Virus record (IMG/VR): IMGVR_UViG_3300031578_000015
Source of the DNA: an uncultured virus (IMG/VR IMGVR_UViG_3300031578_000015)
Lineage: Duplodnaviria; Heunggongvirae; Uroviricota; Caudoviricetes
Strand: one strand, 5' to 3'
Length of the DNA stretch: 20,000 bases
The position numbers and the translations under genes are program-made. Positions 2,742 through 20,000 of this stretch are shown one piece after another; within the stretch, counting starts at the first letter, position 1, and each line of letters opens with the position of its first letter. The notes beneath the pieces are model-generated. The model was given only the letters and a program-made list of their open reading frames with translations, searched no databases and was not told where the DNA came from.

Positions 2742-3098
2742 ATGGCATTAAGGGATATGTTGAATATAGTAAATGGAGTCTCTATCATCAAAACTACGTC
2801 AACTAATGATGGAATGGGTGGAATGACTTCAACTACTATAACTACAGTAATCCCTTTATGTGCATTATGGCAAAATTCTAGTACCAATAAGTATATCTAT
2901 GACAAATATGCAATGAATAGTTCTCATATTTTATGTTTTGAATATGGCGCTTACACTTTTAATGTTCCTGATAGTAGTGGAGGAACAGTTATTGAAACAG
3001 TATCTCATAATGGATCAATATATAATACTATGGGATTTCAAAATGATTATATGGATTTTCATGAAATAGTCACAATGAACTTGGATAGATTATCATGA
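2742..3098 (+). CDS. Head closure/stopper protein (SPP1 gp16-like)
   Basis: 118 aa with TSTNDGMGG loop (DGxGG motif of stoppers); lies between adaptor and neck genes. Confidence 0.75.
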   Translation: MALRDMLNIVNGVSIIKTTSTNDGMGGMTSTTITTVIPLCALWQNSSTNKYIYDKYAMNSSHILCFEYGAYTFNVPDSSGGTVIETVSHNGSIYNTMGFQNDYMDFHEIVTMNLDRLS

Positions 3099-4624
3099 GC
3101 ATGGTCAGAATCGATTTAAAAAAGAAATGGGATGGCTCTATTGTTAAATTATTAGGGAAAAAGGTAATAGATAAAAGTATATATGAAGTTGGATTGATTG
3201 TAGAAGGGAATGCCAAAGAATTAGCGGCTAAAAATTATGGTTATTTAGCAGCTAGTATCAATACACAATTTCAAGGTGGGGGAGATGAATTAGAAGATCC
3301 TAGTAAATATGCTAAAGAAATACCCCCAGTAGGGCATAATGTTGAAACATTTAGAAAAATACAAGCACCTTCACAAGAGGAAGTCGTGTTTGTTGGTACT
3401 GCGGTTGATTATGCTTGTATTTTTGATGGGCATACTAATATAAAAGTACAAGGAGGAAAAGGGTATAAGGTTATATGTCAAATAAAAAAAGGGGATATGG
3501 TATTAACACAAACTGGAGAATATCATAAAGTAATTGAAACATTCAAAAAACCTGCTATACTATCTCCAGATTTAATTGAAATTATTTGCGAGTATAGAAA
3601 AAATAGAAATCACAAATTGATAGTGACCAAAGAGCATAAGATATTGGTTTTTAGAGATGTGCGAAATAAATGGGTTAAGGCAGAAGAATTATTATTAACC
3701 GATAAACTATTTTCTTTGAAAAAGAAAGAACCAAATAAAGGAAAAGGACTTCATAGGAACTGTTTACAATGTGGAAAAGAATTTCAGCCTCCAGGTCATA
3801 ATGAGATTCATCAATATTGTTCTATGGATTGTAGGAATGAATATTGGAAAATTAATGGCAGTCCTAATATTGGTAGTAAGAGGACTAAAAAAACTAGAGA
3901 CAAAATGAGTTTACTTAAAAAGAAGTATTTTGAATTGAATCCAGAAAAACATCCTAATCGGATAATGAATAAAAAGGGATATCAAACCGATGTTGAAAAA
4001 ACTATTGAAGATTGGTTGATTGAACAACAAGTACAATATGAAAAACAAAAAAGAATAGGAAGAATATATGCTGATTTTTATTTACCTATTACAAATGAAA
4101 TATTAGAAGGAGATGGAGCTTTTTGGCATTCAAACCAAAAAAAGGATATTGAAAGAGATAAATATATAAAAAGTATTGATCCAACTATTAAAATAACTCA
4201 CATGCACTTTTATGATAAACGATTTTCTAAAAATATAAATAGAAATCCATTAGAAAATGTATATTATCAGGTATGTAATCCAAGTCCTAAAAGTTATGTT
4301 AATATGGGGGATTTTGAGTGTAGAAAAATTGTCTCTATAAAACCAATCAAGTATGGTGAAAATATAAAAAAACATGCCAGTACACAAGCATATGTTTATG
4401 ATTTATCGGTTGAAGGTGTTCATTCATATTATGCTAATGGCATATTGGTTTCTAATAGTCATGTGGAATTTGGAACTGTAAAAATGGACGCTCAGCCTTT
4501 TCTCAGGCCAGCAGCTGATATGGCACAAGGAAAAGTATTAGAAACAGTAGAGGCTAATGGTAAACAACATTTTCTTGGTTATTTGCGACAGCATGAAGAA
4601 TATTTACAAAGTAGGGGATTATGA
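3095..4624 (+). CDS. HK97 gp10-like neck/tail-completion protein interrupted by an intein (predicted spliced product 162 aa)
   Basis: Removing residues 108-454 restores VFVGTAVDYA|SHVEFGTVKMDAQPFLRPA, matching the gp10 motif VGT.V.YA..VEFGT.KM.AQPFLRPA; N-terminal VEGNAKELA...GYLAASI also fits. Confidence 0.9.
   Translation: MSMVRIDLKKKWDGSIVKLLGKKVIDKSIYEVGLIVEGNAKELAAKNYGYLAASINTQFQGGGDELEDPSKYAKEIPPVGHNVETFRKIQAPSQEEVVFVGTAVDYACIFDGHTNIKVQGGKGYKVICQIKKGDMVLTQTGEYHKVIETFKKPAILSPDLIEIICEYRKNRNHKLIVTKEHKILVFRDVRNKWVKAEELLLTDKLFSLKKKEPNKGKGLHRNCLQCGKEFQPPGHNEIHQYCSMDCRNEYWKINGSPNIGSKRTKKTRDKMSLLKKKYFELNPEKHPNRIMNKKGYQTDVEKTIEDWLIEQQVQYEKQKRIGRIYADFYLPITNEILEGDGAFWHSNQKKDIERDKYIKSIDPTIKITHMHFYDKRFSKNINRNPLENVYYQVCNPSPKSYVNMGDFECRKIVSIKPIKYGENIKKHASTQAYVYDLSVEGVHSYYANGILVSNSHVEFGTVKMDAQPFLRPAADMAQGKVLETVEANGKQHFLGYLRQHEEYLQSRGL
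3416..4456 (+). mobile_element. Intein (347 aa) with Zn-ribbon, NUMOD3-like motif and Vsr/DUF559-like endonuclease
   Basis: Block A CIFDGHTNI, block B LIVTKEHKILV (TxxH), block F/G VYDLSVEGVHSYYANGILVSN followed by +1 Ser. Internal CLQCGKEF...YCSMDC, GSKRTKKTRDKMS and TDVEK...ADFYLP...ILEGDGAFWH motifs. Confidence 0.9.
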
Positions 4625-5756: not shown

Positions 5757-6142
5757 TGAAAGTTGAAGATTTAGATGTACTTAGACCTGAACCAAGAATA
5801 GTCCATATAGGGGGCAAGGATATTGACGTATCCTTTGTTCCTTGTGGAATTACTTTTGATGTAGATGCAATTGTAAGAGAACTGCAAGGAATGGATCAAA
5901 ATAAATTGTTAGAAAATGGACTTGAAACTAAAAGGGCTTTTGAATTATCTGTAGAATTGTGTTCAGTATTTTGTTCACATAATTATCCTGAATTAGATAA
6001 AGAGTGGTTTTTTCAAAATACTGATGCAAATCAGATAAAACAATTTTCAACTGCTATTAAAGATGCTCTAGTTAAAGCTTATGCTGGAATAGAGAATAAT
6101 TCAAAAAATCAGAGGGCTCCCAAGATGAAGGAGAACAAGTAA
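5756..6142 (+). CDS. Tail assembly chaperone (gpG equivalent)
   Basis: Between tail tube and tape measure genes; ends with a slippery heptamer linking it to the next ORF. Confidence 0.85.
   Translation: MKVEDLDVLRPEPRIVHIGGKDIDVSFVPCGITFDVDAIVRELQGMDQNKLLENGLETKRAFELSVELCSVFCSHNYPELDKEWFFQNTDANQIKQFSTAIKDALVKAYAGIENNSKNQRAPKMKENK
6103..6109 (+). other. -1 programmed ribosomal frameshift site A AAA AAT
   Basis: X XXY YYZ heptamer correctly phased (TCA AAA AAT); the -1 frame from 6109 (SEGSQDEGEQVIHLGSLFT) runs without stops into the 6166..6411 ORF. Confidence 0.85.
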
Positions 6143-6411
6143 TTCATCTTGGGAGCCTATTTACAATGATGGCTTTTTTATATTCATGGGCGACTAAAGA
6201 ATATTTATTGTGGAATATGACAATTGGGCAAATAATTATGTATCATAATAGAGGCGTAGATTTAAAATGGCCTGATCCTAACAAGACTTCAAATGGCCCT
6301 GGATTATTGAATAAAAGTGCATCTGAATTAAGAAGAATGCGCGATGAATATAGGACACAAGTAGATTTAAAAAAGAAACAATTGACAGAAAAATATGGAG
6401 ATATAGGATGA
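6109..6411 (+). CDS. C-terminal part (gpT) of frameshifted tail chaperone gpGT (about 218 aa fusion)
   Basis: Open -1 frame includes the listed 6166..6411 ORF; W..EYLLWNMTIGQI pattern is gpT-like; directly precedes the tape measure gene. Confidence 0.8.
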   Translation, partial: SEGSQDEGEQVIHLGSLFTMMAFLYSWATKEYLLWNMTIGQIIMYHNRGVDLKWPDPNKTSNGPGLLNKSASELRRMRDEYRTQVDLKKKQLTEKYGDIG

Positions 6412-6432
6412 TAAACAAACAAGGAAATCTCC

Positions 6433-9400
6433 ATGGCTAACACACTCGGAGATATGGTTGTTGCCATAACTGGCGATACTAGTAATTTTAATCTTTCTAT
6501 AGATGCAGCTGGAAAAAAGTTGGATTTACTCGCGCAAATAACTGCTAAAAGTGCAGTTGAAATGTCTACATCATTTAAAAAAATAGATAATGAAGCAAAA
6601 TTATGGGGTAATAGTACTGATTTAATAGCACAAAAACAAAAAGCCTTGAAAGATGAAATGACTAATTTAATGAATCAAGGTTTTGATCCCATGAGTGCTA
6701 AAGTACAAAGTTTAAAAACTCAATATAGCGCTTTAGGTGATGAGGCTTTAGCATTAGAAAAGAGTCAAGTATCATTAAAGAATAATCTAAAAGAATTTGG
6801 TTCACTCATGACTGGATTAGGCGTTGGATTAACGGCAGGTGTGACTGTACCTATAATTGGTATGGCTAAAGCTGCTATTGCTTCTTCCGCGCAAATGGAA
6901 ATGCTTCAGGCATCATTTACTACCTTTTTAGGTAGCGCAGACCAAGCCGCAGTATTAATGAATAATTTAATTCAAATGGCTGCTAAAACACCATTTGTAA
7001 CTACAGATTTAGCTAGTGGTGCTAAAATGCTATTGCAATATGGTATTGCTACTCAAGATGTAATTCCTGATTTGAAGATGCTAGGTGATGTATCTTCGGG
7101 CAATACTGAAATATTTAATAGATTAGTTTATGCTTTTGGACAAATAAATTCAACTGGCAGATTAATGGGTCAAGATTTGCGTCAAATGACTGAGGCAGGA
7201 TTCAACCCATTATATATAATAAGTCAAAAAACTGGGGAAAGTTTTCAATCATTACAAAAAAGAATGGCTGCTGGTGGAATATCTGCCGGTGAAGTTACTA
7301 AAGCATTTAAAATTGCTACAAGTGAAGGTGGAAAATTTTACCAGGGAATGGAAAGAGGAAGTTTAACATTTACAGGATTGGTTTCTACTTTAAAAGATAA
7401 TATAGGAATAATGGGGAGATCAATAACAGATCAATTTATACCTGGATTAAAAGAAATAATTAAATCATTGAGTGGAATGGCTCAATGGCTTACGGCATTA
7501 GATCCAAGTACAAAATCATTTATAGTTATTATGGGGGCATTTGCAGCTGCCGCTGGCCCTGTTGCATTAGGCATAGGATTGATTTCTAGTGCAATTGCTA
7601 CAATGGATGTTGCAACTAAATCATTAATGCTTACTACAGGTCCAGTTATTTTAGCTATTGGGGCAGTTGTTGCTTTAGTAGCATTAATTGGTACAAAAGC
7701 TGCTGAATCTAAAAAACAATTAGATGATTTATCCACTGCCACATCGAAGATAGGAACATCTGATCCAGCCATATTGAATAATGCATTGGTTGAAGTAAAT
7801 AAACAGATACAGGCACAAAAAGATTTGATTGGTTTAGCAAAAATGAGAAAAGAATCTTTAGCTGCCGTTCCTGATTTAGAAAAAAAGTTAGCAGATTTAG
7901 AGCAAACTAGAATAGGGATATCTAGTACATTATTCCAAGTATTAAAGAAAGGAGAAAATTCTAATTTAACTGATGTTCAAACATCTATTGAAAAAGAAGA
8001 TGAATGGACTACAAAAAGAAAGGCTGCTGAAGCTGCATTAGCACATGAATATGCCTTGATCGATGAAAAGCAAAAAGCTGCATATATCAGTGGTGAAGCT
8101 TATGATGCTCAATCTGAAAAAAGAAAAGCGTTATTAGAACTTTTAAATAAAATGCTAGAACAAGGCTTTACCGTACAAGGTGCTGGATACCAAACTATTC
8201 TGCAAGCTAATTTAGATGTAATGAACGGTGAAGAAGCTCGTTATGAAGCACTAAATAGAATGGGCAAGGAATATGCTGATAGCCAAATAGAAAATAATGC
8301 CAAAATAGCTACTGCTGAACAAGCCCAAGGCCAAGCATTAGAAGTTCAAGGTCAAACATATATTGATAATCAAAATAGAATAAAAGTAGCAGAACAAGCT
8401 AAATGGAATGCCTTAAATAAGATGGGACAAGATTACATAGATAATGAAAATAAGACAATTAATCTATCATTAGATATTGCTACTACAACATTATCTGCTA
8501 TGGATGCTATAAAAAATGGAATTAATTCTAAAGATCCCTTAGGTGGATTGATTAAAACTATAGAAACTGTAACGGCTTCTATGGGACCTGAAGGTAAATT
8601 AGTAAGTACTATAATGCAAATTGGCACTTCATTTGTCGATATAATGAGATCATTAAATGATGATATTCAAGGAATATTGGGCAATTCCACTAAAGAAACA
8701 CAAGATTTTGCCATGAATATAATGAATATAAATGAACAAATACTTAATGCTAAAATGCAAAATAATAGGGATCAATTGGCGGATGATCTTGCATTACTTG
8801 GTGTTGAAGAACAAACCGCTCTTGAAGATGCCGGATTTAAAACTAAAACCGCGGAAGAACAATTACAAGATCAATTAGCAACTGCTATAAAAAATGGTGA
8901 TCTTGCAACTCAAGCAACCTTAAAGAATGAAATAGCTAAACAAAAAATAATTGATACTTATGAAGCCAAAAAAGCTGAGGCACAAGATATTGCTGATGCT
9001 GCATATAAAAAAATGGTGCATGATAAGGCTATACTAGATCAAAAAATTGCAATTGCACAAACAGAAATAGCAAAACAAGAATCAATTGCCAAATTACCAT
9101 GGTGGGATTTTTTAACAGGTTGGAGCCAAAGAAAACAATTAGATAGTTTATATACTGATTTAATTTCTGCAATACAAGCAACACCAATCCCTGCTGCTGC
9201 AAATGGTGCAATAGTTAATCCTACTCCTGGCGGGACGGTGATTCGTGTTGCAGAAGCTGATCAACCAGAAGTTATTTTCCCATTAGATAGATTGGAAAGT
9301 TTCTTATCAAAAGGATTCAACACAAATAATATGAACACTAATGAAAATGAAGGGAATATAAATCTAGTTGTTACTCTTGATAGTAAACCATTCTTGGATA

Positions 9401-9459
9401 AGATATTTCCAGCAACTAAAAACAGAACTGTATTAATTAGTCAAGGAGCAGTAGTATGA
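6433..9459 (+). CDS. Tape measure protein
   Basis: 1008 aa, helical; N-terminal LGDMVVAITGD; tape-measure domain MAAKTPF...AFGQINSTGRLMGQDLRQMTEAG; hydrophobic segments; C-terminal AANGAIV..TPGGT...VAEA.QPEVIFPL. Confidence 0.95.
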   Translation: MANTLGDMVVAITGDTSNFNLSIDAAGKKLDLLAQITAKSAVEMSTSFKKIDNEAKLWGNSTDLIAQKQKALKDEMTNLMNQGFDPMSAKVQSLKTQYSALGDEALALEKSQVSLKNNLKEFGSLMTGLGVGLTAGVTVPIIGMAKAAIASSAQMEMLQASFTTFLGSADQAAVLMNNLIQMAAKTPFVTTDLASGAKMLLQYGIATQDVIPDLKMLGDVSSGNTEIFNRLVYAFGQINSTGRLMGQDLRQMTEAGFNPLYIISQKTGESFQSLQKRMAAGGISAGEVTKAFKIATSEGGKFYQGMERGSLTFTGLVSTLKDNIGIMGRSITDQFIPGLKEIIKSLSGMAQWLTALDPSTKSFIVIMGAFAAAAGPVALGIGLISSAIATMDVATKSLMLTTGPVILAIGAVVALVALIGTKAAESKKQLDDLSTATSKIGTSDPAILNNALVEVNKQIQAQKDLIGLAKMRKESLAAVPDLEKKLADLEQTRIGISSTLFQVLKKGENSNLTDVQTSIEKEDEWTTKRKAAEAALAHEYALIDEKQKAAYISGEAYDAQSEKRKALLELLNKMLEQGFTVQGAGYQTILQANLDVMNGEEARYEALNRMGKEYADSQIENNAKIATAEQAQGQALEVQGQTYIDNQNRIKVAEQAKWNALNKMGQDYIDNENKTINLSLDIATTTLSAMDAIKNGINSKDPLGGLIKTIETVTASMGPEGKLVSTIMQIGTSFVDIMRSLNDDIQGILGNSTKETQDFAMNIMNINEQILNAKMQNNRDQLADDLALLGVEEQTALEDAGFKTKTAEEQLQDQLATAIKNGDLATQATLKNEIAKQKIIDTYEAKKAEAQDIADAAYKKMVHDKAILDQKIAIAQTEIAKQESIAKLPWWDFLTGWSQRKQLDSLYTDLISAIQATPIPAAANGAIVNPTPGGTVIRVAEADQPEVIFPLDRLESFLSKGFNTNNMNTNENEGNINLVVTLDSKPFLDKIFPATKNRTVLISQGAVV

Positions 9460-11114
9460 GAATAGCATATGAAAATATTATTGATGATTTAAATGCCTCA
9501 ACGTTGACTGCTTTAACTACTGCAACTGGATATTCTATATTAGATGTTCAAGATCAGAGATTGACCACTCAATGGCGAAGCGGTTCTTTTGTTGTGGGGG
9601 CATCTGCACAAACTATAACTATTGACTTTGGTTCCGCTAAAAAAATAAATACTGTTGCTATTTTAGGGCATGATCTATCTTTAGGCGAATTCCAAAATAT
9701 TCAGCGTTTAGGATCAGAAATATATGTTCAAAGTTTAGCTTCGTTAGGATCAGGAATAGTAATAGCCGGTACTGCCGCTACTGGGCAAATATATAGATCA
9801 TTGGATTCCGGCTCTAGTTGGACTAATATTCAGCGTTTAGGATCAGAAACACAGATATTAAGTTTAGTATCGTTAGGATCAGGGATAGTAATAGCCGGTA
9901 CTTATCCTACTGGGCAAATATATAGATCATTGGATTCTGGTTCTAGTTGGACTAATATTCAGCGTTTAGGATCAGAAACACAGATATTAAGTTTAGTATC
10001 GTTAGGATCAGGGATAGTGATAGCTGGTACTGGAGCAACAGGTCAAATATACAGATCATTGGATTCTGGTTCTAGTTGGACTAATATTCAGCGTTTAGGA
10101 TCAGAAACATATGTATATAGTTTAGCTTCGTTAGGATCAGGAATAGTAATAGCTGGTACTGCCACTACTGGGCAAATATATAGATCATTGGATTCTGGTT
10201 CTAGTTGGGCTAATATTCAGCGTTTAGGATCAGAAACATATGTTAATAGTTTAGCATCATTAGGATCAGGAATAGTAATAGCTGGTACTGCCACTACTGG
10301 TCAAATATACAGATCATTGGATTCTGGTTCTAGTTGGACTAATATTCAGCGTTTAGGATCAGAAACATATGTTAATAGTTTAGCATCATTAGGATCAGGA
10401 ATAGTAATAGCTGGTACTGCCACTACTGGGCAAATATATAGATCATTGGATTCCGGCTCTAGTTGGACTAATATTCAGCGTTTAGGATCAGAAACACAGG
10501 TGCCGAGTTTAGTATCGCTAGGATCAGGAATAGTAATAGCTGGTACTGGAGCAACAGGTCAAATATATAAGTCGGAATTATATATCACAATTATGGGAAA
10601 TGCTGTGAATTCATGGACTGCACCATCTGTTATTGAAACATTATCATGGAATGAAGGTGCAATACTTAAATTTATAACTGATGCGCATTATCAATATTGG
10701 AGATTTTCAATAGCAAACTCTAGTAATTCTAATGGTTATGTACAAATAGGCAGATTATGGTTAGGAGATTATATTACCATTGATCCTTCATCATTATTAG
10801 ATTTTAAAGTAATAAAGAAAAGATCAGATCAGGTTATTTATGGACGCAATAGACAAAAATGGGCAAATATAGGAGTAGGATGGAGACAATTTACATTTAA
10901 TTTTCCACCTACACAAGAAGCTACATTACAACTAATTCAAAATATGTATGATACTGTAGGCAATCATAGTTCATTTATTTTCTGTAATTTCGATACCATT
11001 CGCGATTATAAATTAGTAGAGCCTTGTTATGTATCAATAAATGGGGATTTAACTTTCTCACATGATAATAGAATGAAGTTTACTTATCAATTAATTATGG
11101 AAGAGGATAAATAA
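9456..11114 (+). CDS. Distal-tail-position protein with discoidin-like domain and inserted 7-bladed Asp-box (BNR) beta-propeller
   Basis: First gene after the tape measure; ITIDFGSAKKINTVAILGH and YQYWRFSI...VQIGRLWLG flank seven 43-aa repeats containing YRSLDSGSSW. Confidence 0.75.
   Translation: MRIAYENIIDDLNASTLTALTTATGYSILDVQDQRLTTQWRSGSFVVGASAQTITIDFGSAKKINTVAILGHDLSLGEFQNIQRLGSEIYVQSLASLGSGIVIAGTAATGQIYRSLDSGSSWTNIQRLGSETQILSLVSLGSGIVIAGTYPTGQIYRSLDSGSSWTNIQRLGSETQILSLVSLGSGIVIAGTGATGQIYRSLDSGSSWTNIQRLGSETYVYSLASLGSGIVIAGTATTGQIYRSLDSGSSWANIQRLGSETYVNSLASLGSGIVIAGTATTGQIYRSLDSGSSWTNIQRLGSETYVNSLASLGSGIVIAGTATTGQIYRSLDSGSSWTNIQRLGSETQVPSLVSLGSGIVIAGTGATGQIYKSELYITIMGNAVNSWTAPSVIETLSWNEGAILKFITDAHYQYWRFSIANSSNSNGYVQIGRLWLGDYITIDPSSLLDFKVIKKRSDQVIYGRNRQKWANIGVGWRQFTFNFPPTQEATLQLIQNMYDTVGNHSSFIFCNFDTIRDYKLVEPCYVSINGDLTFSHDNRMKFTYQLIMEEDK
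9696..10574 (+). repeat. Coding tandem repeat, 129-bp unit, 6 full copies plus 1 partial
   Basis: Units start at 9696, 9825, 9954, 10083, 10212, 10341 and 10470; the first 25 nt (AATATTCAGCGTTTAGGATCAGAAA) are identical in all seven. Confidence 0.97.
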
Positions 11115-13225
11115 TGTCTTTTTCGACTGATATTACAAAATCAGTTTCTGATTTTAGAATATTGATTCATGTCGATAGCAAGGATGGAAATTATGCCGGA
11201 AGATTTTCATTTGATTCTTTTACTCCAATAGGTAGTGTAGTTCCTTACGATGGAAGAGTTCGTCAGGCACCCAGTATTTCAATTAATAGAGACTCTAATC
11301 AATTTGGAATATTAGTGTATTCCTCATCTGGTTTTACATTAAATAATGCTGATGGTTTATTTGATACATTGATTGAAAACTATAATGTGATTGGTGCTAC
11401 TTTTAGATTATATATAGGTTATGTTGATTTGAATATTTCAGAATATGTAAATATATATACTGGGTATATTGAAAGCATAAATATTGATGAAAATGAAGCA
11501 TCATTTTCCGTAGCAGATTTAAGGAAAAGATTACAAACAGGAAATAGTACTGATATTAGTTTTGTTAATTCAGTACAGGGAATTGAAAATATATTATTGG
11601 GTAACTATGCAATAACGGCAGGAAGCACTTATTTTGATGTTAGTGCAATGACTGCGGCGAAATCATTAGCTTATGATGTTATTAGGGAAGCGCCAGTTAA
11701 TGATACTGTAGAAGCCGCGATAAGTGATTGCGTTATAAGTACAATGGGATTCTTTTTTATAACTGGGGATGGAAGATATAGTTATAAGATGGTTGATATT
11801 GCAGCAACATCAGTAGGTACAATTAGTCATTATGATATTATAAATCCAATATCTATTAATTATGATAGTTCTGGAATTATTGCTAGTAGTAGTGTTAAAG
11901 CCCCAAATTACCCCCCACAATTTTTAGCAACACACTCTAGTATTTTTGTAGTAGCCACCGCATTTACAACTGTTTTTGAATGTACGTTACCCAATAATGG
12001 GGCTTTAATCGGGGTTTCTTTGCCCACTACATCAACATTAAATGTTTATTCTAGTTATGATCATTGTAAAAGTATGGCAAATATAAGTAACCTATCTTTA
12101 TCAAATCAAAATTTTACTTCTTTACAAAGACTAACAAATGATTATATTTTATTGGGTACATATTCATCAACTGATGTTGGAATTTTATATAGAAGCACTG
12201 ATTATGGTTCCACGTGGAGTAGTATAGTAACATCAAATAGTATAATGAGAATAACAAAAGATATAAATGGTATTTGTTATTTTTCCAATTCTATATCTAG
12301 TTCAGTTAAAAGTATATATAAAAGTGTTGATTATGGTAGTTCCTTTTCTTTAGTATATAATACATTACCAAATGAATCTATAGATCAAATTGAAATTGGT
12401 AATACGGCTAGTACCGTAATTATGACTAAGAGTCCATCTATAACAAGTACTTCAGTTTCAATATATAGATCCGTTGACTTTGCTTCTTCATTTACTCAAA
12501 TAATGACAATATCTGAAACATCAATAACATTAAATACTTCAATATTATATCTAAATGGAATTTTTTATATTTCTGTTATTTTTGATAATTCAATTGCATT
12601 ATATCAATCATTAGATGATGGTATTACATGGACAACTTTCTATACGTTTTATGATGCAAAAAATTTAAGAAGCGGAATTTATAAATTACGTTATGATAAT
12701 AATATGGATTTATTTGGTATAAATGTTGATGGTTTATTATATAAATCTGAAAAATCATTTGATAACAAAAATATAATTTCAACAATTTCTCCTATATCTT
12801 ATGATTCAACTATTAGATTTTATTTAAATTTTGATGATGGCACAACAGTTTATAATAAAAAAGATGTTGGAGTTGTTATAACAAAAATCGATCCAACAAA
12901 ACTATATTATATTAATAATACATATAAAGCCTCTACGTATTCACAATATGGAATAGACACATTACAACATTTTAATACAGTATTAACTAACTATTCAGAT
13001 GCACAAACATTAGGAACTGATTTAATTGAATACTATAAAGATTTACATGGGACTTTTTCTATTCAAGTTCCTGTAAAATACTATACTGTAAATATAGGAG
13101 ATAATGTCGATGTTGAAATATGGAGGGAAAGGCAACAATTCTTAGGAACTAAAAAATGCGAGGTAATGGGAAAAAGTTATAACTTAGAAAATGGATTTAT
13201 AAACTTTGATTTGAGAATAATTTAA
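11114..13225 (+). CDS. Tail tip/hub (Tal-position) protein with inserted divergent Asp-box propeller
   Basis: Hub-like N-terminus (FTLNNADGLFD...IYTGYIESI) and C-terminus (VNIGDNVDV); central Asp-boxes YRSTDYGSTW, YKSVDYGSSF, YRSVDFASSF, YQSLDDGITW. Confidence 0.7.
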   Translation: MSFSTDITKSVSDFRILIHVDSKDGNYAGRFSFDSFTPIGSVVPYDGRVRQAPSISINRDSNQFGILVYSSSGFTLNNADGLFDTLIENYNVIGATFRLYIGYVDLNISEYVNIYTGYIESINIDENEASFSVADLRKRLQTGNSTDISFVNSVQGIENILLGNYAITAGSTYFDVSAMTAAKSLAYDVIREAPVNDTVEAAISDCVISTMGFFFITGDGRYSYKMVDIAATSVGTISHYDIINPISINYDSSGIIASSSVKAPNYPPQFLATHSSIFVVATAFTTVFECTLPNNGALIGVSLPTTSTLNVYSSYDHCKSMANISNLSLSNQNFTSLQRLTNDYILLGTYSSTDVGILYRSTDYGSTWSSIVTSNSIMRITKDINGICYFSNSISSSVKSIYKSVDYGSSFSLVYNTLPNESIDQIEIGNTASTVIMTKSPSITSTSVSIYRSVDFASSFTQIMTISETSITLNTSILYLNGIFYISVIFDNSIALYQSLDDGITWTTFYTFYDAKNLRSGIYKLRYDNNMDLFGINVDGLLYKSEKSFDNKNIISTISPISYDSTIRFYLNFDDGTTVYNKKDVGVVITKIDPTKLYYINNTYKASTYSQYGIDTLQHFNTVLTNYSDAQTLGTDLIEYYKDLHGTFSIQVPVKYYTVNIGDNVDVEIWRERQQFLGTKKCEVMGKSYNLENGFINFDLRII

Positions 13226-13235
13226 GGAGAATGCT

Positions 13236-13385
13236 ATGGACGATGTGTGGATTGTCATTAGAGATGCAGCATTAGTCATTATATCAGGGGCTATTATTAC
13301 AGGTATTTATAAAATCATAAAGTGGATGTCTTCACTTAGTTTTATATTGAAAAATATGGAGGAAGGTGGGAAAGAAAGAAAATAA
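13236..13385 (+). CDS. Small single-TM membrane protein, 49 aa (not in ORF track): MDDVWIVIRDAALVIISGAIITGIYKIIKWMSSLSFILKNMEEGGKERK
   Basis: Manually translated; AAGGAG RBS at 13224-13229; one hydrophobic helix and a charged tail; start of the lysis region. Confidence 0.65.
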   Translation: MDDVWIVIRDAALVIISGAIITGIYKIIKWMSSLSFILKNMEEGGKERK

Positions 13386-14438: not shown

Positions 14439-15014
14439 ATGATGTTAAAAGAATTATTTGTTAATTGCATTAATGAACCTTGGCAAACAATTGGCTTAGA
14501 TACTCAATATAAAATATTGAATAATACTTTATATTTACAACCATCAAGTTCATTGTCTGATTGGATCAATAATTTTGATTTTCCTGCTAAGGCATACAAT
14601 GGTTCAAATATTAAATGGTATGTTCATAGAGGATTTTTAAGGGTGTATAAAGCTGCTAGAGAGCAATTGTTAAAAGTTATAATTGATAACAAAATAAATA
14701 CAATAGTTGGCTATTCTCATGGCGCGGCTATTGCTACATTATTGCATGAAGATTGTATTTTTAATGGATTGAATGTTTTTACTTATGTGTTTGGTAGTCC
14801 TAGAATAGTATGGATGCCTGGCAAGAAAATATTGAATAGATGGGACAATTTTTTTAGAATCAATAATAATGGAGATTTGGTTAGCCATTTACCACCATTT
14901 TTATTTGGATTTAAGCATGTAGGAACAAAAATAAATATAGGAAGTAAGGTATTTATACCAAAAATCAAATATCATGAACAATCAAAATATATAGATAATC
15001 TACAAGGGTTATGA
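14439..15014 (+). CDS. Class 3 lipase (alpha/beta hydrolase)
   Basis: DWINNF, VHRGF, nucleophile elbow GYSHG, FGSPR, NNGDLVSHLPP, HVG and a C-terminal His; no signal peptide. Confidence 0.9.
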   Translation: MMLKELFVNCINEPWQTIGLDTQYKILNNTLYLQPSSSLSDWINNFDFPAKAYNGSNIKWYVHRGFLRVYKAAREQLLKVIIDNKINTIVGYSHGAAIATLLHEDCIFNGLNVFTYVFGSPRIVWMPGKKILNRWDNFFRINNNGDLVSHLPPFLFGFKHVGTKINIGSKVFIPKIKYHEQSKYIDNLQGL

Positions 15015-15142: not shown

Positions 15143-15562
15143 ATGGCAGGTTTTAACATTGATTTATCAGGTTTAGGACAATTGGCAACTGGAATTGGAT
15201 CGGCAGCTAAAGACATACGCACTGCAATTACAGGAAAGGCTATTTTAGATCCTACGGCACAAGCGGAATTAGAGGAAAAATTAGCAGCTATTGATGCCTC
15301 AGTTATGAATGCTCAAGCGGCAATTAATCAAGCGGAAGCTGTCTCACCTAATCTATTTATTGCCGGATGGAGGCCCGCTATTGGATGGGTTTGTGTAATT
15401 GCATTAATATATAATTTTTTAGCCGAACCTTTAATGAAAACATTTGGTCTTAATGCTCCAACAATACAAATGCAAGATTTAATCGGTTTACTTGTCGGTA
15501 TGTTAGGATTAGCTGGAGCTAGGACAGTGGAAAAAATAAATAATGCTGAAAGTAATAGATAA
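15143..15562 (+). CDS. Holin, GTA_holin_3TM-like
   Basis: INQAEA.S..LFIAGWRPAIGWVC and LLVGMLGL.G.RT.EK signature; AAGGAG RBS; last gene of the late operon. Confidence 0.88.
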   Translation: MAGFNIDLSGLGQLATGIGSAAKDIRTAITGKAILDPTAQAELEEKLAAIDASVMNAQAAINQAEAVSPNLFIAGWRPAIGWVCVIALIYNFLAEPLMKTFGLNAPTIQMQDLIGLLVGMLGLAGARTVEKINNAESNR

Positions 15563-18145: not shown

Positions 18146-18544
18146 CTAAGTTTTCCCGTACTTTCCTGCCTTGGACAGCTTATCTATTTTGTTTTGAAAG
18201 TATTCGATTTTCTCTATATAGTATTCTCTAGTAGCCATGAATGGCTTTTTGCTATCTAAATATAATTGTTCCATTTCTGCCATGGAATAATGTTTATACA
18301 TCCAATTGGCATAATCAGCCGCCTTGCCATGATGATGCTTATAATGGATCTTATTAGTCATGGCATGGGCATTCCGCTCATCCCATCTAAGGCTAGGTGT
18401 CTGCATATAATCATAATAATGAGAACATTGCAGATGATCTTTCTTTTTAGATAATATACATTTCTTATCACGCAAGCGAATGTATAAATTAAAAGTTTTG
18501 TCTAAACGATTTTTTAATGTTTTTAACTTGGGAAGTTTTTTCAT
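18146..18544 (-). CDS. NinG/Rap-like recombination endonuclease
   Basis: LDKTFNLYIRLRD..C, LQCSHY and SLRWDERNAH match the NinG consensus (F..YIR.RD..CI.C...GH...LRF.E.N.H). Confidence 0.8.
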   Translation of the reverse strand: MKKLPKLKTLKNRLDKTFNLYIRLRDKKCILSKKKDHLQCSHYYDYMQTPSLRWDERNAHAMTNKIHYKHHHGKAADYANWMYKHYSMAEMEQLYLDSKKPFMATREYYIEKIEYFQNKIDKLSKAGKYGKT

Positions 18545-19000: not shown

Positions 19001-19141
19001 TTATCTATAATTCCGAATAATAAGAACAGGCCCTATTTCCCAACATTCGCTTAATACTGGAAAATGGTGTTTATATTTATTCCATTTTTCAAATAAGAAG
19101 ATGCCAATATACCAATTATTATGTTTAGTTCTAAGATTCAT
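19001..19141 (-). CDS. Hypothetical protein, 46 aa (not in ORF track): MNLRTKHNNWYIGIFLFEKWNKYKHHFPVLSECWEIGPVLIIRNYR
   Basis: Manually translated; AGGAG RBS within the end of the recA-like gene; stop abuts the next ATG at 19000. Confidence 0.6.
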   Translation of the reverse strand: MNLRTKHNNWYIGIFLFEKWNKYKHHFPVLSECWEIGPVLIIRNYR

Positions 19142-20000
19142 ATTTTGGTCTCCTATTTAGCTTGACGCTGTTTTCTATCTCTTCCCATTTATCCTTTACC
19201 TTTTTCTTCAATTCTTTTGATACATTATTTTCTTCAATATATTTTACAAGCTCATTCCGCGACATTGATTTATCATCCCAATTGCCGCGAGGATTCTTTA
19301 CCAGCTTTCCTTGTGGTGTTAAAAAACCATATAGATAATCGATATTGGTAGTAATGTCATCAAGGCCATATTCAAAATACAATTTGATGAAGCATTCCCG
19401 ATATGGTCTTGGTGTTTTGCTTTTTGTATTTTTTGCTTTTACCGTTACTCCGATAGGAATACCCTTAGCTAATATCTTATTGACATTGGCAAGCCATAAT
19501 ACAGTATGGGCATAAAAATCCATCGCCTTTCCACCAGACCTAGTATATTTTTCAAAACTACCTGGAGTCAAATTACATCTTAATTGGGAAATTACAATTA
19601 TTAATGCATTTTTCCTTTCTGTTAAATCTGTCAATTGTGGGAAAAAGGTATTAGAAAGATATTTAGGTTTACCTAGTCTGTAAGAACCTTTTATTTTTTC
19701 TTCTTTTTCCCTAGTTATCTTTTCTCGTTTCTTTTTATATGCATTATATTGAGCATCAGCTAATTTCTTCCCTTCAAGACTATCAAGACCATCTAACGAA
19801 TCAATTACATAGACTCCAAATTCATTATCTTTTAATGATTCTAAAAAATTTCTTACATTGCAATATAAATCTTCTACTGTTTTTGATTTAGTTCTTTTGG
19901 TTTCATCCAAAGGCATGATTTCAAAACCATATAATTTTTTTGTATTAAAAGAAAACCCACTTTCACAGTCATCATAAACCCATTTGAATTTATCTAAAAA
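19131..20000 (-). CDS. RecA/UvsX-like recombinase, 5'-truncated by window edge
   Basis: Frame open to base 20000 (FLDKFKWVYDDCESGF...); Walker B VYVIDSLDGL, IIVISQLR, SGGKAMDFYA and KNTKSK correspond to RecA motifs; Walker A lies outside the window. Confidence 0.88.
   Translation of the reverse strand, partial: FLDKFKWVYDDCESGFSFNTKKLYGFEIMPLDETKRTKSKTVEDLYCNVRNFLESLKDNEFGVYVIDSLDGLDSLEGKKLADAQYNAYKKKREKITREKEEKIKGSYRLGKPKYLSNTFFPQLTDLTERKNALIIVISQLRCNLTPGSFEKYTRSGGKAMDFYAHTVLWLANVNKILAKGIPIGVTVKAKNTKSKTPRPYRECFIKLYFEYGLDDITTNIDYLYGFLTPQGKLVKNPRGNWDDKSMSRNELVKYIEENNVSKELKKKVKDKWEEIENSVKLNRRPKYES

Follow-up and report, generated by a model that had tools for sequence, protein, structure and literature searches.

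How does a phage tail protein keep a set of repeated blades almost uniform in DNA and yet vary the few residues where a ligand would be expected to sit? The question is raised by a gene in a 20,000-nucleotide stretch (hereafter, the window) of IMG/VR record IMGVR_UViG_3300031578_000015 (Duplodnaviria; Heunggongvirae; Uroviricota; Caudoviricetes), part of the ~72-kb genome of an uncultured soil siphophage. The open reading frame (ORF) list and translation place a 552-residue tail protein, P0001, at 9456–11114 (plus strand, as are all features below unless stated). Within it, seven tandem 129-bp units, the last one truncated, occupy 9696–10574 and encode residues 81–373, a predicted seven-bladed Asp-box propeller. 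A first-pass annotation, made from the letters alone, had proposed that this is a recently amplified propeller whose two hypervariable spots are shuffled by recombination to diversify receptor binding. We consider it reasonably probable that the array encodes a host-binding propeller head that evolves by concerted evolution together with selection, with no dedicated diversifying enzyme. The explanation is built on the repeats themselves, their mosaic structure, the predicted fold, a position pattern found across the repeat family, and the exchange of inserts as cassettes.

Tandem Repeats Finder (TRF) reported a single array in the window (9696–10569, period 129, 6.8 copies, 90% matches, no indels, score 1303), in frame with the ORF. 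The window has seven copies of a 26-base unit head, all of them inside the array, against an expectation of 0 from 200 shuffles. The units start at 9696, 9825, 9954, 10083, 10212, 10341, and 10470, and homology in unit 7 is confined to its first ~100 nt; the first-pass annotation had the number of units and their span right, with the last unit partial. At the protein level the six full units average 0.90 identity in pairwise comparison, far above the median blade identity of 60% by which Pereira & Lupas 2022 delimit highly repetitive ('recently amplified') propellers (PMC9218822).

Twenty-six of the 129 nucleotide sites in a unit vary, 10 of them in codons that never change their residue. In the variable-site table, spot 1 (unit codons 9–12) lies at 9720–9731 in unit 1 and at 9849–9860, 9978–9989, 10107–10118, 10236–10247, 10365–10376, and 10494–10505 in units 2–7; spot 2 (unit codons 27–28) lies at 9774–9779 in unit 1 and at 9903–9908, 10032–10037, 10161–10166, 10290–10295, 10419–10424, and 10548–10553 in units 2–7. 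From unit 1 to unit 7, spot 1 reads IYVQ/TQIL/TQIL/TYVY/TYVN/TYVN/TQVP and spot 2 reads AA/YP/GA/AT/AT/AT/GA. The DNA markers CAG (units 2, 3, and 7), GGAGCAACAGGT (units 3 and 7), TAC (units 3 and 5), and TCCGGC (units 1 and 6) are distributed as had been stated, and both residue strings are exactly as first given. Minor variation also occurs at a third place, unit position 15 (A/V), where the residue is perfectly linked to the Y/Q choice at position 10.

Structure prediction indicates that the array encodes a closed seven-bladed Asp-box (BNR, Ycf48-like) propeller. An AlphaFold2 model of P0001, built from a 43-sequence alignment, has four strands per unit and a mean predicted local distance difference test score (pLDDT) of 87.1, with 93–98 in the propeller blocks. 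The Asp-box SLDSGSSW is present in six of the seven units and falls between DSSP strands 3 and 4; by the strand list, residues 78–84 would form the strand that closes the propeller. The best Foldseek match in the Protein Data Bank (PDB) was a seven-bladed Ycf48 (5ojr_C, E 2.5e-15, 316 columns, template modeling (TM) score 0.76 by target), and after the Ycf48 proteins came other Asp-box propellers, GH74 enzymes among them. Pfam matched Sortilin-Vps10 (PF15902) at 52.8 bits against a curated cut-off of 33 (E 3.6e-14). Among predicted viral structures, such propellers are common in tail-fibre and baseplate proteins.

The remainder of the protein appears to be a carrier for this head. The N-terminal 80 residues (9456–9695) would contribute the first strands of a CBM32/F5-F8-type-C jelly roll, with a Pfam match to F5_F8_type_C at residues 27–72; 10575–11111 would encode the rest of the jelly roll (to about residue 430) and a C-terminal alpha/beta domain (residues ~430–552). 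As a natural construct for the non-propeller part we used a two-unit relative, P0002. VIA-align superposed its model on the carbohydrate-binding module (CBM) 4zxe_A with Z 15.1 (root-mean-square deviation 2.2 Å, 126 of 132 residues, model residues 5–223), and Foldseek matched its N-terminal body to many CBM32 modules, identifying it as a CBM32/discoidin jelly roll. The two blades of P0002 fail to fold (pLDDT <50 over residues 76–159). By these models, the propeller interrupts a CBM32-type jelly roll within one of its loops. For the C-terminal part, phrog_8610 (function unannotated) matches residues 397–511 (1.5e-12), and Atlas structure matches of residues 430–552 to clusters with PF09343 DUF2460 or PF05939 Phage_min_tail (TM 0.68–0.80) are a lead only. 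A Pfam scan of 36 family members, taken to E up to 1, gave no match to Phage_min_tail, DUF2460, or Dit, and the P0001 base had no PF05709 match; the PDB fold-search lists are dominated by the jelly roll and barely probe residues 430–552. A PDB sequence search with P0001 returned nothing, and a PDB profile search with alignment A3 returned only lectin-like jelly rolls, which match the LamG-type insert of relatives and not the base domain. In Pfam scans of P0001, no glycosidase family was significant and no NACHT/STAND domain was found.

The gene directly follows the tape-measure gene (6433–9459, 1008 aa), and the stop of the one overlaps the start of the other at 9456–9459. The tape-measure assignment comes from a Pfam match to PF20155 TMP_3 (E 1.3e-21) and from 10 matching PHROG families, 9 of which are annotated as tape measure (best 5.7e-53). 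Of the 21 related loci with the base protein, 17 likewise have a tape-measure match immediately before it. Judged by gene order, 9456–11114 would occupy the position of a distal tail or tail-tip protein, and the proposal of a seven-blade propeller in a tail protein is borne out by AlphaFold2, Foldseek, Pfam, and this adjacency.

Where on the propeller do the variable residues lie? In each unit, DSSP assigns residues 10–18 to strand 1, 21–27 to strand 2, and 31–35 to strand 3; the Asp-box spans 36–42, and strand 4 runs from residue 43 to residue 4 of the next unit. In the model, spot 1 (residues 9–12) falls at the N-terminus of the inner strand, and spot 2 (residues 27–28) covers the last residue of strand 2 and reaches into the 2-3 loop. 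According to Quistgaard & Thirup 2009 (PMC2716378), these very elements, the inner-strand N-terminus and the 2-3 turn, define the top face of an Asp-box propeller; in known Asp-box glycosidases, ligand-binding and catalytic residues are in the top-face loop 2-3, and the Asp-boxes themselves are on the bottom face and support the fold from there. Because the strand topology matches this definition, both spots are predicted to be on the top face, where the first-pass annotation had put them.

The spots also stand apart in their rates of change. Nei–Gojobori means over 21 unit pairs gave nonsynonymous (dN) and synonymous (dS) rates of 0.010 and 0.223 for the scaffold codons and of 0.576 and 0.753 for the six spot codons. 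The scaffold dN/dS of 0.04 denotes very strong constraint. Protein change in the spots is ~58-fold faster than in the scaffold, and spot dN is 2.6 times the scaffold dS. The units had been described as nearly identical even at synonymous sites; a mean scaffold dS of 0.22, together with the 10 of 26 variable sites in codons of unchanged residue, contradicts that description.

We found that the units have swapped segments and that their mosaic exceeds chance. The four-gamete test was failed by 30 of 91 pairs of informative sites, and the best of all 945 trees required 38 steps against a minimum of 30, an excess of 8 parsimony steps. Recombination-free simulations (n = 200) under a null model that places 38 mutations on 47 free sites, a crude one, gave a mean excess of 1.9 and a maximum of 6, and none of the 200 reached 8. 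Individual exchanges can be read off the units: unit 3 equals unit 2 over nt 1–65 (0 differences) and carries a 12-nt patch of unit 7, two silent changes included, and unit 6 equals unit 5 over nt 1–89 and unit 1 over nt 101–129, the silent TCC GGC included. The suspicion that the markers assort beyond what simple serial duplication explains therefore stands, at 8 extra steps against at most 6 simulated and with the segment exchange in view. As to the per-codon dN/dS and recombination checks that had been suggested, a recombination signal is present and spot dN is high, with the spot dN/dS in the window at 0.76. The mosaic needs no special machinery, because ordinary unequal crossing-over yields mosaic units in any tandem array.

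Relatives place this exchange in a longer history. P0003 (552 aa) and P0004 (547 aa) have seven diverged blades at the same insertion site as P0001. Within-protein blade likeness is 90% in P0001, 65% in P0003, and 54% in P0004; the base domains of the three proteins are 48–58% identical (55–58% to P0001), and their blades have no positional orthology. The simplest history is a single old insertion, followed by lineage-specific homogenisation or re-amplification.

The insert as a whole is also exchanged. Among the relatives, P0009 and P0021 carry a LamG-type insert (PF13385), short-array forms carry 2 or 3 units (P0002, P0005, P0006), and 23 of 36 aligned relatives contain Laminin_G_3; the LamG-type insert occupies one jelly-roll loop and the propeller another. 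We compared 24 loci, L002–L025, by tblastn, omitting L001 as the twin of L003. Twelve hold an insert-free base protein of ~231–250 aa, four a long other insert, and one is the window's near-twin; four are cut off after the N-terminus, and the remaining three match solely through a propeller of this repeat type that belongs to other proteins. At L020, blastn delimited a cassette at 9576–10743 of the window whose counterpart (3254–4511 in L020) is a LamG-type insert, and the flanks on either side are 91–92% identical in DNA. P0009 (582 aa, PF13385) was matched to the 1746-nt span of L020 by length only. Since the flanks are alike and the inserts differ, whole heads have been swapped between related phages.

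The position pattern extends well beyond this tail protein. We surveyed 255 proteins from two protein searches. Forty of them had four or more full ungapped units, and a mean unit identity of at least 0.75 was reached by 9 of the 40; the nine include P0001 and some sister proteins and represent roughly four or five lineages by unit type. Position 27 was among the four most variable positions in 9/9 arrays, position 12 in 8/9, position 10 in 7/9, and position 28 in 5/9. Aggregate variability was 0.82 at position 27, 0.74 at 12, 0.65 at 10, and 0.64 at 28, followed by 0.50 at position 9, 0.30 at position 29, and at most 0.23 at all others. Tyr is the commonest residue at positions 10, 12, 27, and 28 (23%), and positions 10 and 12 admit a wide range of residues, among which Tyr, Gln, Asn, His, Arg, and Trp are frequent. 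The near-identical arrays include a fibre-like protein, P0012, and a PKD-plus-membrane protein, P0007. L004, an unrelated contig of 61% GC, has a free-standing seven-unit array of the 43-residue Asp-box unit at 738–1640 (TRF 6.8 copies, 87% matches) with variable positions as in the window, a spot dN of 0.566, a spot dN/dS of 2.8, and a scaffold dS of 0.26. An exhaustive search with the propeller returned 30,916 cluster representatives at E ≤0.001 and 1,315 at E ≤1e-30. Because identical variable positions occur in proteins that are not phage tail proteins, the four-position design belongs to the repeat family and is no invention of the window's phage.

Is the array real? All of its 99-mers are unique, so reads of at least 100 nt can order the units; repeated k-mers number 217 at k = 31, 114 at k = 55, and 17 at k = 77. 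An exact-repeat scan found a 77-nt repeat at 9778–9854 with its second copy at 10423–10499, five units downstream, and recombination or an assembler short-cut across it yields exactly the two-unit form P0002, which joins units 1 and 7, matches P0001 exactly elsewhere, and sits on a 71.9-kb contig against the window's 72.5 kb. P0002 may be either an assembly collapse or a real deletion. In sequencing run X1, unitigs specific to units 2, 3, 4, and 7 have depths of 472–482, the flanks have 477–511, and a unitig common to units 5 and 6 has 900; these depths fit seven units. Logan unitigs (k = 31) break inside the array and confirm neither unit order, joints, nor rare variants, and the parts they leave uncovered count as no evidence. 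The independently assembled variant L001/L003 differs from the window in 111 alignment columns, all within 5922–9031, with none from 9032 to 13277. All but one of these columns fall within 6335–9031 (a small gene at 6166–6411, the gap after it, and patches of the tape measure), and column 5922 stands apart; the distribution suggests imported patches rather than even divergence. In run X3, related unitigs differ from the window at spot codons 9903/9904, 10111, and 10292/10293, as well as at silent sites; these unitigs can be placed at more than one position, and other phages may be their source. Run X4 held weak, partial relatives only. The pairs P0079/P0014 and P0017/P0007 differ only in the number of near-identical units, and contig L017 ends exactly at the would-be array start. 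Public short-read assemblies of such array genes are often collapsed or broken.

We propose the following mechanism. The propeller would serve as an accessory head whose target is a molecule on the host surface, probably a glycan, and would make contact through the top face, around the central axis. Four positions per blade (10, 12, 27, and 28) would line that face; they differ from one blade to the next and are often Tyr, Gln, Asn, or His. Inside the array, gene conversion and unequal crossing-over, whether as concerted evolution or as repeated re-amplification, would keep the blades alike in DNA, and the same events would carry variant patches from blade to blade, with units 3 and 6 as candidate examples. 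Selection would keep or favor differences at the top-face codons, and on a larger scale the whole insert is exchanged as a cassette among related phages, which carry a propeller, a LamG-type domain, or no insert. In this scheme the act of binding, the kind of ligand, the exposure of the residues, and selection as the cause are the steps that we infer from the data above, and selection in particular is suggested by the rates at the spots.

Several observations pull against this proposal. The dN/dS inside the window's spots is 0.76, below 1, with six saturated codons only, and exposure of the variable residues at the top face is deduced from strand topology in a model. In distant arrays spot 2 switches between two recurring loop types (x-Pro and Gly/Ala-x), an alternation that could reflect packing near the axis rather than ligand choice. 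Against allele variation, the array of L001/L003 is identical base for base to that of the window, and run X1 (~500x) has no variant letters in the array, in contigs, which drop rare variants. Unit order rests on short-read assemblies, and the 2-unit P0002 and the 3- and 2-unit P0005/P0006 of a sister lineage show that assemblies of such arrays collapse. Finally, among 185,579 species genomes, 40 pattern matches were obtained and none upheld, so that no prophage relative was confirmed there and no host clue came from them.

The most serious rival holds that the blade differences are non-adaptive, either an alternation of small and bulky residues near the sevenfold axis or neutral remnants that conversion has not yet erased. 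The same loop alternation speaks for it, in that spot 2 falls into two recurring classes (YP/HP/NP versus GA/AT/GG) across unrelated arrays, and so does the perfect covariation of positions 15 and 10, as packing partners would show; the spot dN/dS of 0.76 is in keeping with it as well. We nonetheless regard this rival as unlikely. Spot dN exceeds the window's scaffold dS 2.6-fold and dN/dS reaches 2.8 in L004, positions 10 and 12 accept many residue types, and the scaffold dN/dS of 0.04 singles out the spots. Moreover, designed propellers with perfect symmetry fold. Collapsed forms (P0002, P0005/P0006, P0079 versus P0014), the end of L017 at the array start, and the k-mers repeated at k = 31, 55, and 77 could instead mean that unit order and mosaic are short-read artefacts and that the true blade number or arrangement differs; comparable fungal arrays, too, are reported to fail in short-read assembly (PMC12222747). 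We think this quite improbable: 99-mers are unique, unit-specific unitigs have flank-like depth and the unitig of units 5 and 6 has double, and a distinguishable variant's assembly gives the array base for base. Seven units also give a confident closed propeller model, in contrast to the two-unit form, which does not fold, and P0003 and P0004, whose diverged blades are easily assembled, have seven as well. An assembly artefact, which the first-pass annotation had itself named as a way to be wrong, is thus probably not what we are looking at, with unit order still resting on short reads.

Two further readings would give the array a more specialized role, and we hold both to be very unlikely. 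One is a dedicated, fast host-range diversifier with many alleles within populations, driven by a UvsX/RecA-like recombinase (19131–19916, minus strand; phrog_97 at 3.7e-19) and a NinG/Rap-like junction endonuclease (18146–18544, minus strand; phrog_5034 at 1.9e-12). Both recombination genes are in the window, the units are mosaic, and X3 unitigs differ at spot codons. However, recombinases of this kind are widespread in phages, nothing ties these two to the array in function, and no link between the array and either gene was found in the 20-kb window, which leaves the suggested aid from RecA-like and NinG-like proteins without a basis there. Two assemblies with differences elsewhere agree fully over the array, and X1 has no variant letters in it, so that ongoing, population-level variation, as first envisaged, is not what the second assembly and the ~500x sample display; the X3 variants include silent changes, are ambiguously placed, and may be those of other phages; and the design also occurs outside phage tails. 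Invariance across reads and relatives had been named as evidence that would count against a diversifier; the array is identical in L001/L003 and monomorphic in X1, with the two-unit P0002 either a deletion or a collapse. What survives of the diversifier idea is a probable host-binding module whose blades exchange segments; we do not take it for a programmed or dedicated generator, as ordinary recombination can account for the mosaic. The other reading takes the propeller for a glycosidase of the sialidase or GH74 type that would break down host polysaccharide, rather than for a head that binds. Sialidase propellers occur in phage tailspikes. Many Asp-box propellers are glycosidases (PMC2716378), and the fold search lists GH74 enzymes. 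Against this, blades that are 90% identical imply that no blade-specific catalytic set has differentiated, Ycf48 proteins, which are not enzymes, head the fold matches, and Pfam gave no significant glycosidase family. We could hardly credit an enzyme on this evidence, and we continue with the host-binding head that evolves by concerted evolution and selection.

The next tail gene (11114–13225, 703 aa) encodes a second, old and diverged Asp-box propeller at residues ~285–545, 26% identical to the array (BLASTP, E 6e-11) and with weak BNR_6 and PSII_BNR matches in Pfam; its N-terminal ~260 residues are kept in relatives. The two adjacent genes, 9456–11114 and 11114–13225, look like the young and the old state of one fold, side by side. 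Farther away, an ORF at 3095–4624 (509 aa) resembles a neck or tail-completion protein split by an intein with a homing endonuclease: Intein_splicing covers residues 164–454, PT-HINT 119–209, and DUF559 plus an HNH endonuclease ~203–382, and PHROG 5 ('tail completion or Neck1') matches residues 456–489 only. A class-3 lipase/esterase gene (14439–15014; PF01764 at 7.9e-16) is directly upstream of a holin gene (15143–15562; phrog_3427), a placement that suggests a lysis-associated esterase. Among INPHARED phages, the window had no DNA match and a protein search gave only four distant matches, all to Vibrio phages; in the nearest virus record, G001 (7 kb), P0001 had no match.

How does the array compare with known systems? 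In the fungal HNWD/HET-D and HET-E WD40 arrays of Podospora anserina, concerted evolution keeps the blades near-identical in DNA (Paoletti et al. 2007, PMC1805685; Ament-Velasquez et al. 2025, PMC12222747), and short-read assemblies of HET-D/E-type arrays are unreliable (PMC12222747). Both HET-D/E and P0001 have four hypervariable positions per repeat, which lie on the interaction face in the fungal proteins and are predicted from topology to lie on the top face in P0001, and both reshuffle their repeats; the likeness to HET-E-type repeats that the first-pass annotation drew is apt. They differ in that P0001 has an Asp-box and not a WD40 repeat, is an extracellular virion protein, and has no NACHT/STAND domain; in that the window offers one array and no paralogous loci that could act as donors; and in that no allele or repeat-number polymorphism was seen and the spot dN/dS in the window is not above 1. 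The array works like the HET-D/E repeat family without being a member, because it lacks a NACHT/STAND domain, is a single array, and has a neighbor propeller only 26% identical. That same low identity led us to reject the neighboring propeller gene as a source of converted sequence. Outside the array, the 20-kb window contains no other copy of the unit.

We also rejected a diversity-generating retroelement: there is no reverse transcriptase and no template copy of the unit, and the changes are not adenine-specific. The search for a reverse transcriptase covered the 26 ORFs of the 20-kb window out of the ~72-kb genome (with PHROGs, and for 9 of the 26 also with Pfam), and within that scope the statement that none is present holds.

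Other tail proteins are built on a comparable plan. Siphophages of lactic acid bacteria have 'evolved' distal tail (Dit) proteins with inserted CBMs, and gpM is the Dit of phage lambda. Like an evolved Dit, the P0001 gene comes directly after the tape measure and encodes a base of ~250 aa that occurs with or without an insert, and the inserts vary among relatives. Unlike an evolved Dit, P0001 has as its base a CBM32-type jelly roll plus a gpM/DUF2460-like domain (a structure lead) and not a Dit N-domain plus galectin domain, and its insert is a seven-blade Asp-box propeller. In the T-even adhesins gp37 and gp38, conserved DNA flanks the variable receptor-contact segments and allows specificity to be exchanged by recombination; the fold of P0001 is different, and gp37/gp38 exchange takes place between phages, whereas that of P0001 takes place between the blades of one gene. 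In fold, the nearest counterparts are Ycf48/HCF136 (PDB 5ojr, 2xbg), with which P0001 shares the seven blades, a TM score of 0.72–0.76 by target, and SxDxGxxW between strands 3 and 4. However, identity is only 15–17%, the Ycf48 blades are diverged, and Ycf48 serves a different role, as a photosystem II assembly factor. Highly repetitive propellers in general include an Asp-box group (Sortilin- and PSII-like, ~5% of the set) and viruses, and propellers are described as being in a continuous amplification cycle, to which the history of one insertion and later homogenisation conforms (PMC9218822); hypervariable positions, gene conversion, and phages are not discussed there. Our analysis adds the insertion in a tail protein, the four variable positions, and evidence for lineage-specific homogenisation at one conserved insertion site.

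A wider proposal follows, which we offer tentatively as possible, if rather doubtful as a whole. The 43-residue Asp-box unit may be a widespread natural binder scaffold, employed by bacteria, phages, and probably archaea. Its seven-blade propeller would combine a framework that hardly varies with 28 positions for specificity (four per blade), and the unit's DNA uniformity would be kept because blades and patches are thereby exchangeable; in the window's phage it would allow host retargeting free of a reverse transcriptase, on a jelly roll with plug-in heads. The collapsed two- and three-unit forms meanwhile warn that such genes are systematically mis-assembled from short reads, and a near-symmetric Asp-box propeller that folds confidently in prediction is a possible natural starting point for binder engineering. 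If our reading of the array is true, phage tails would share a device with fungal immune receptors, namely repeats homogenised by recombination with a handful of selected contact residues, and would change their binding without a diversity-generating retroelement. The four positions per blade would then be where determinants of host range should be sought in a large family that lacks annotation (1,315 cluster representatives at E ≤1e-30).

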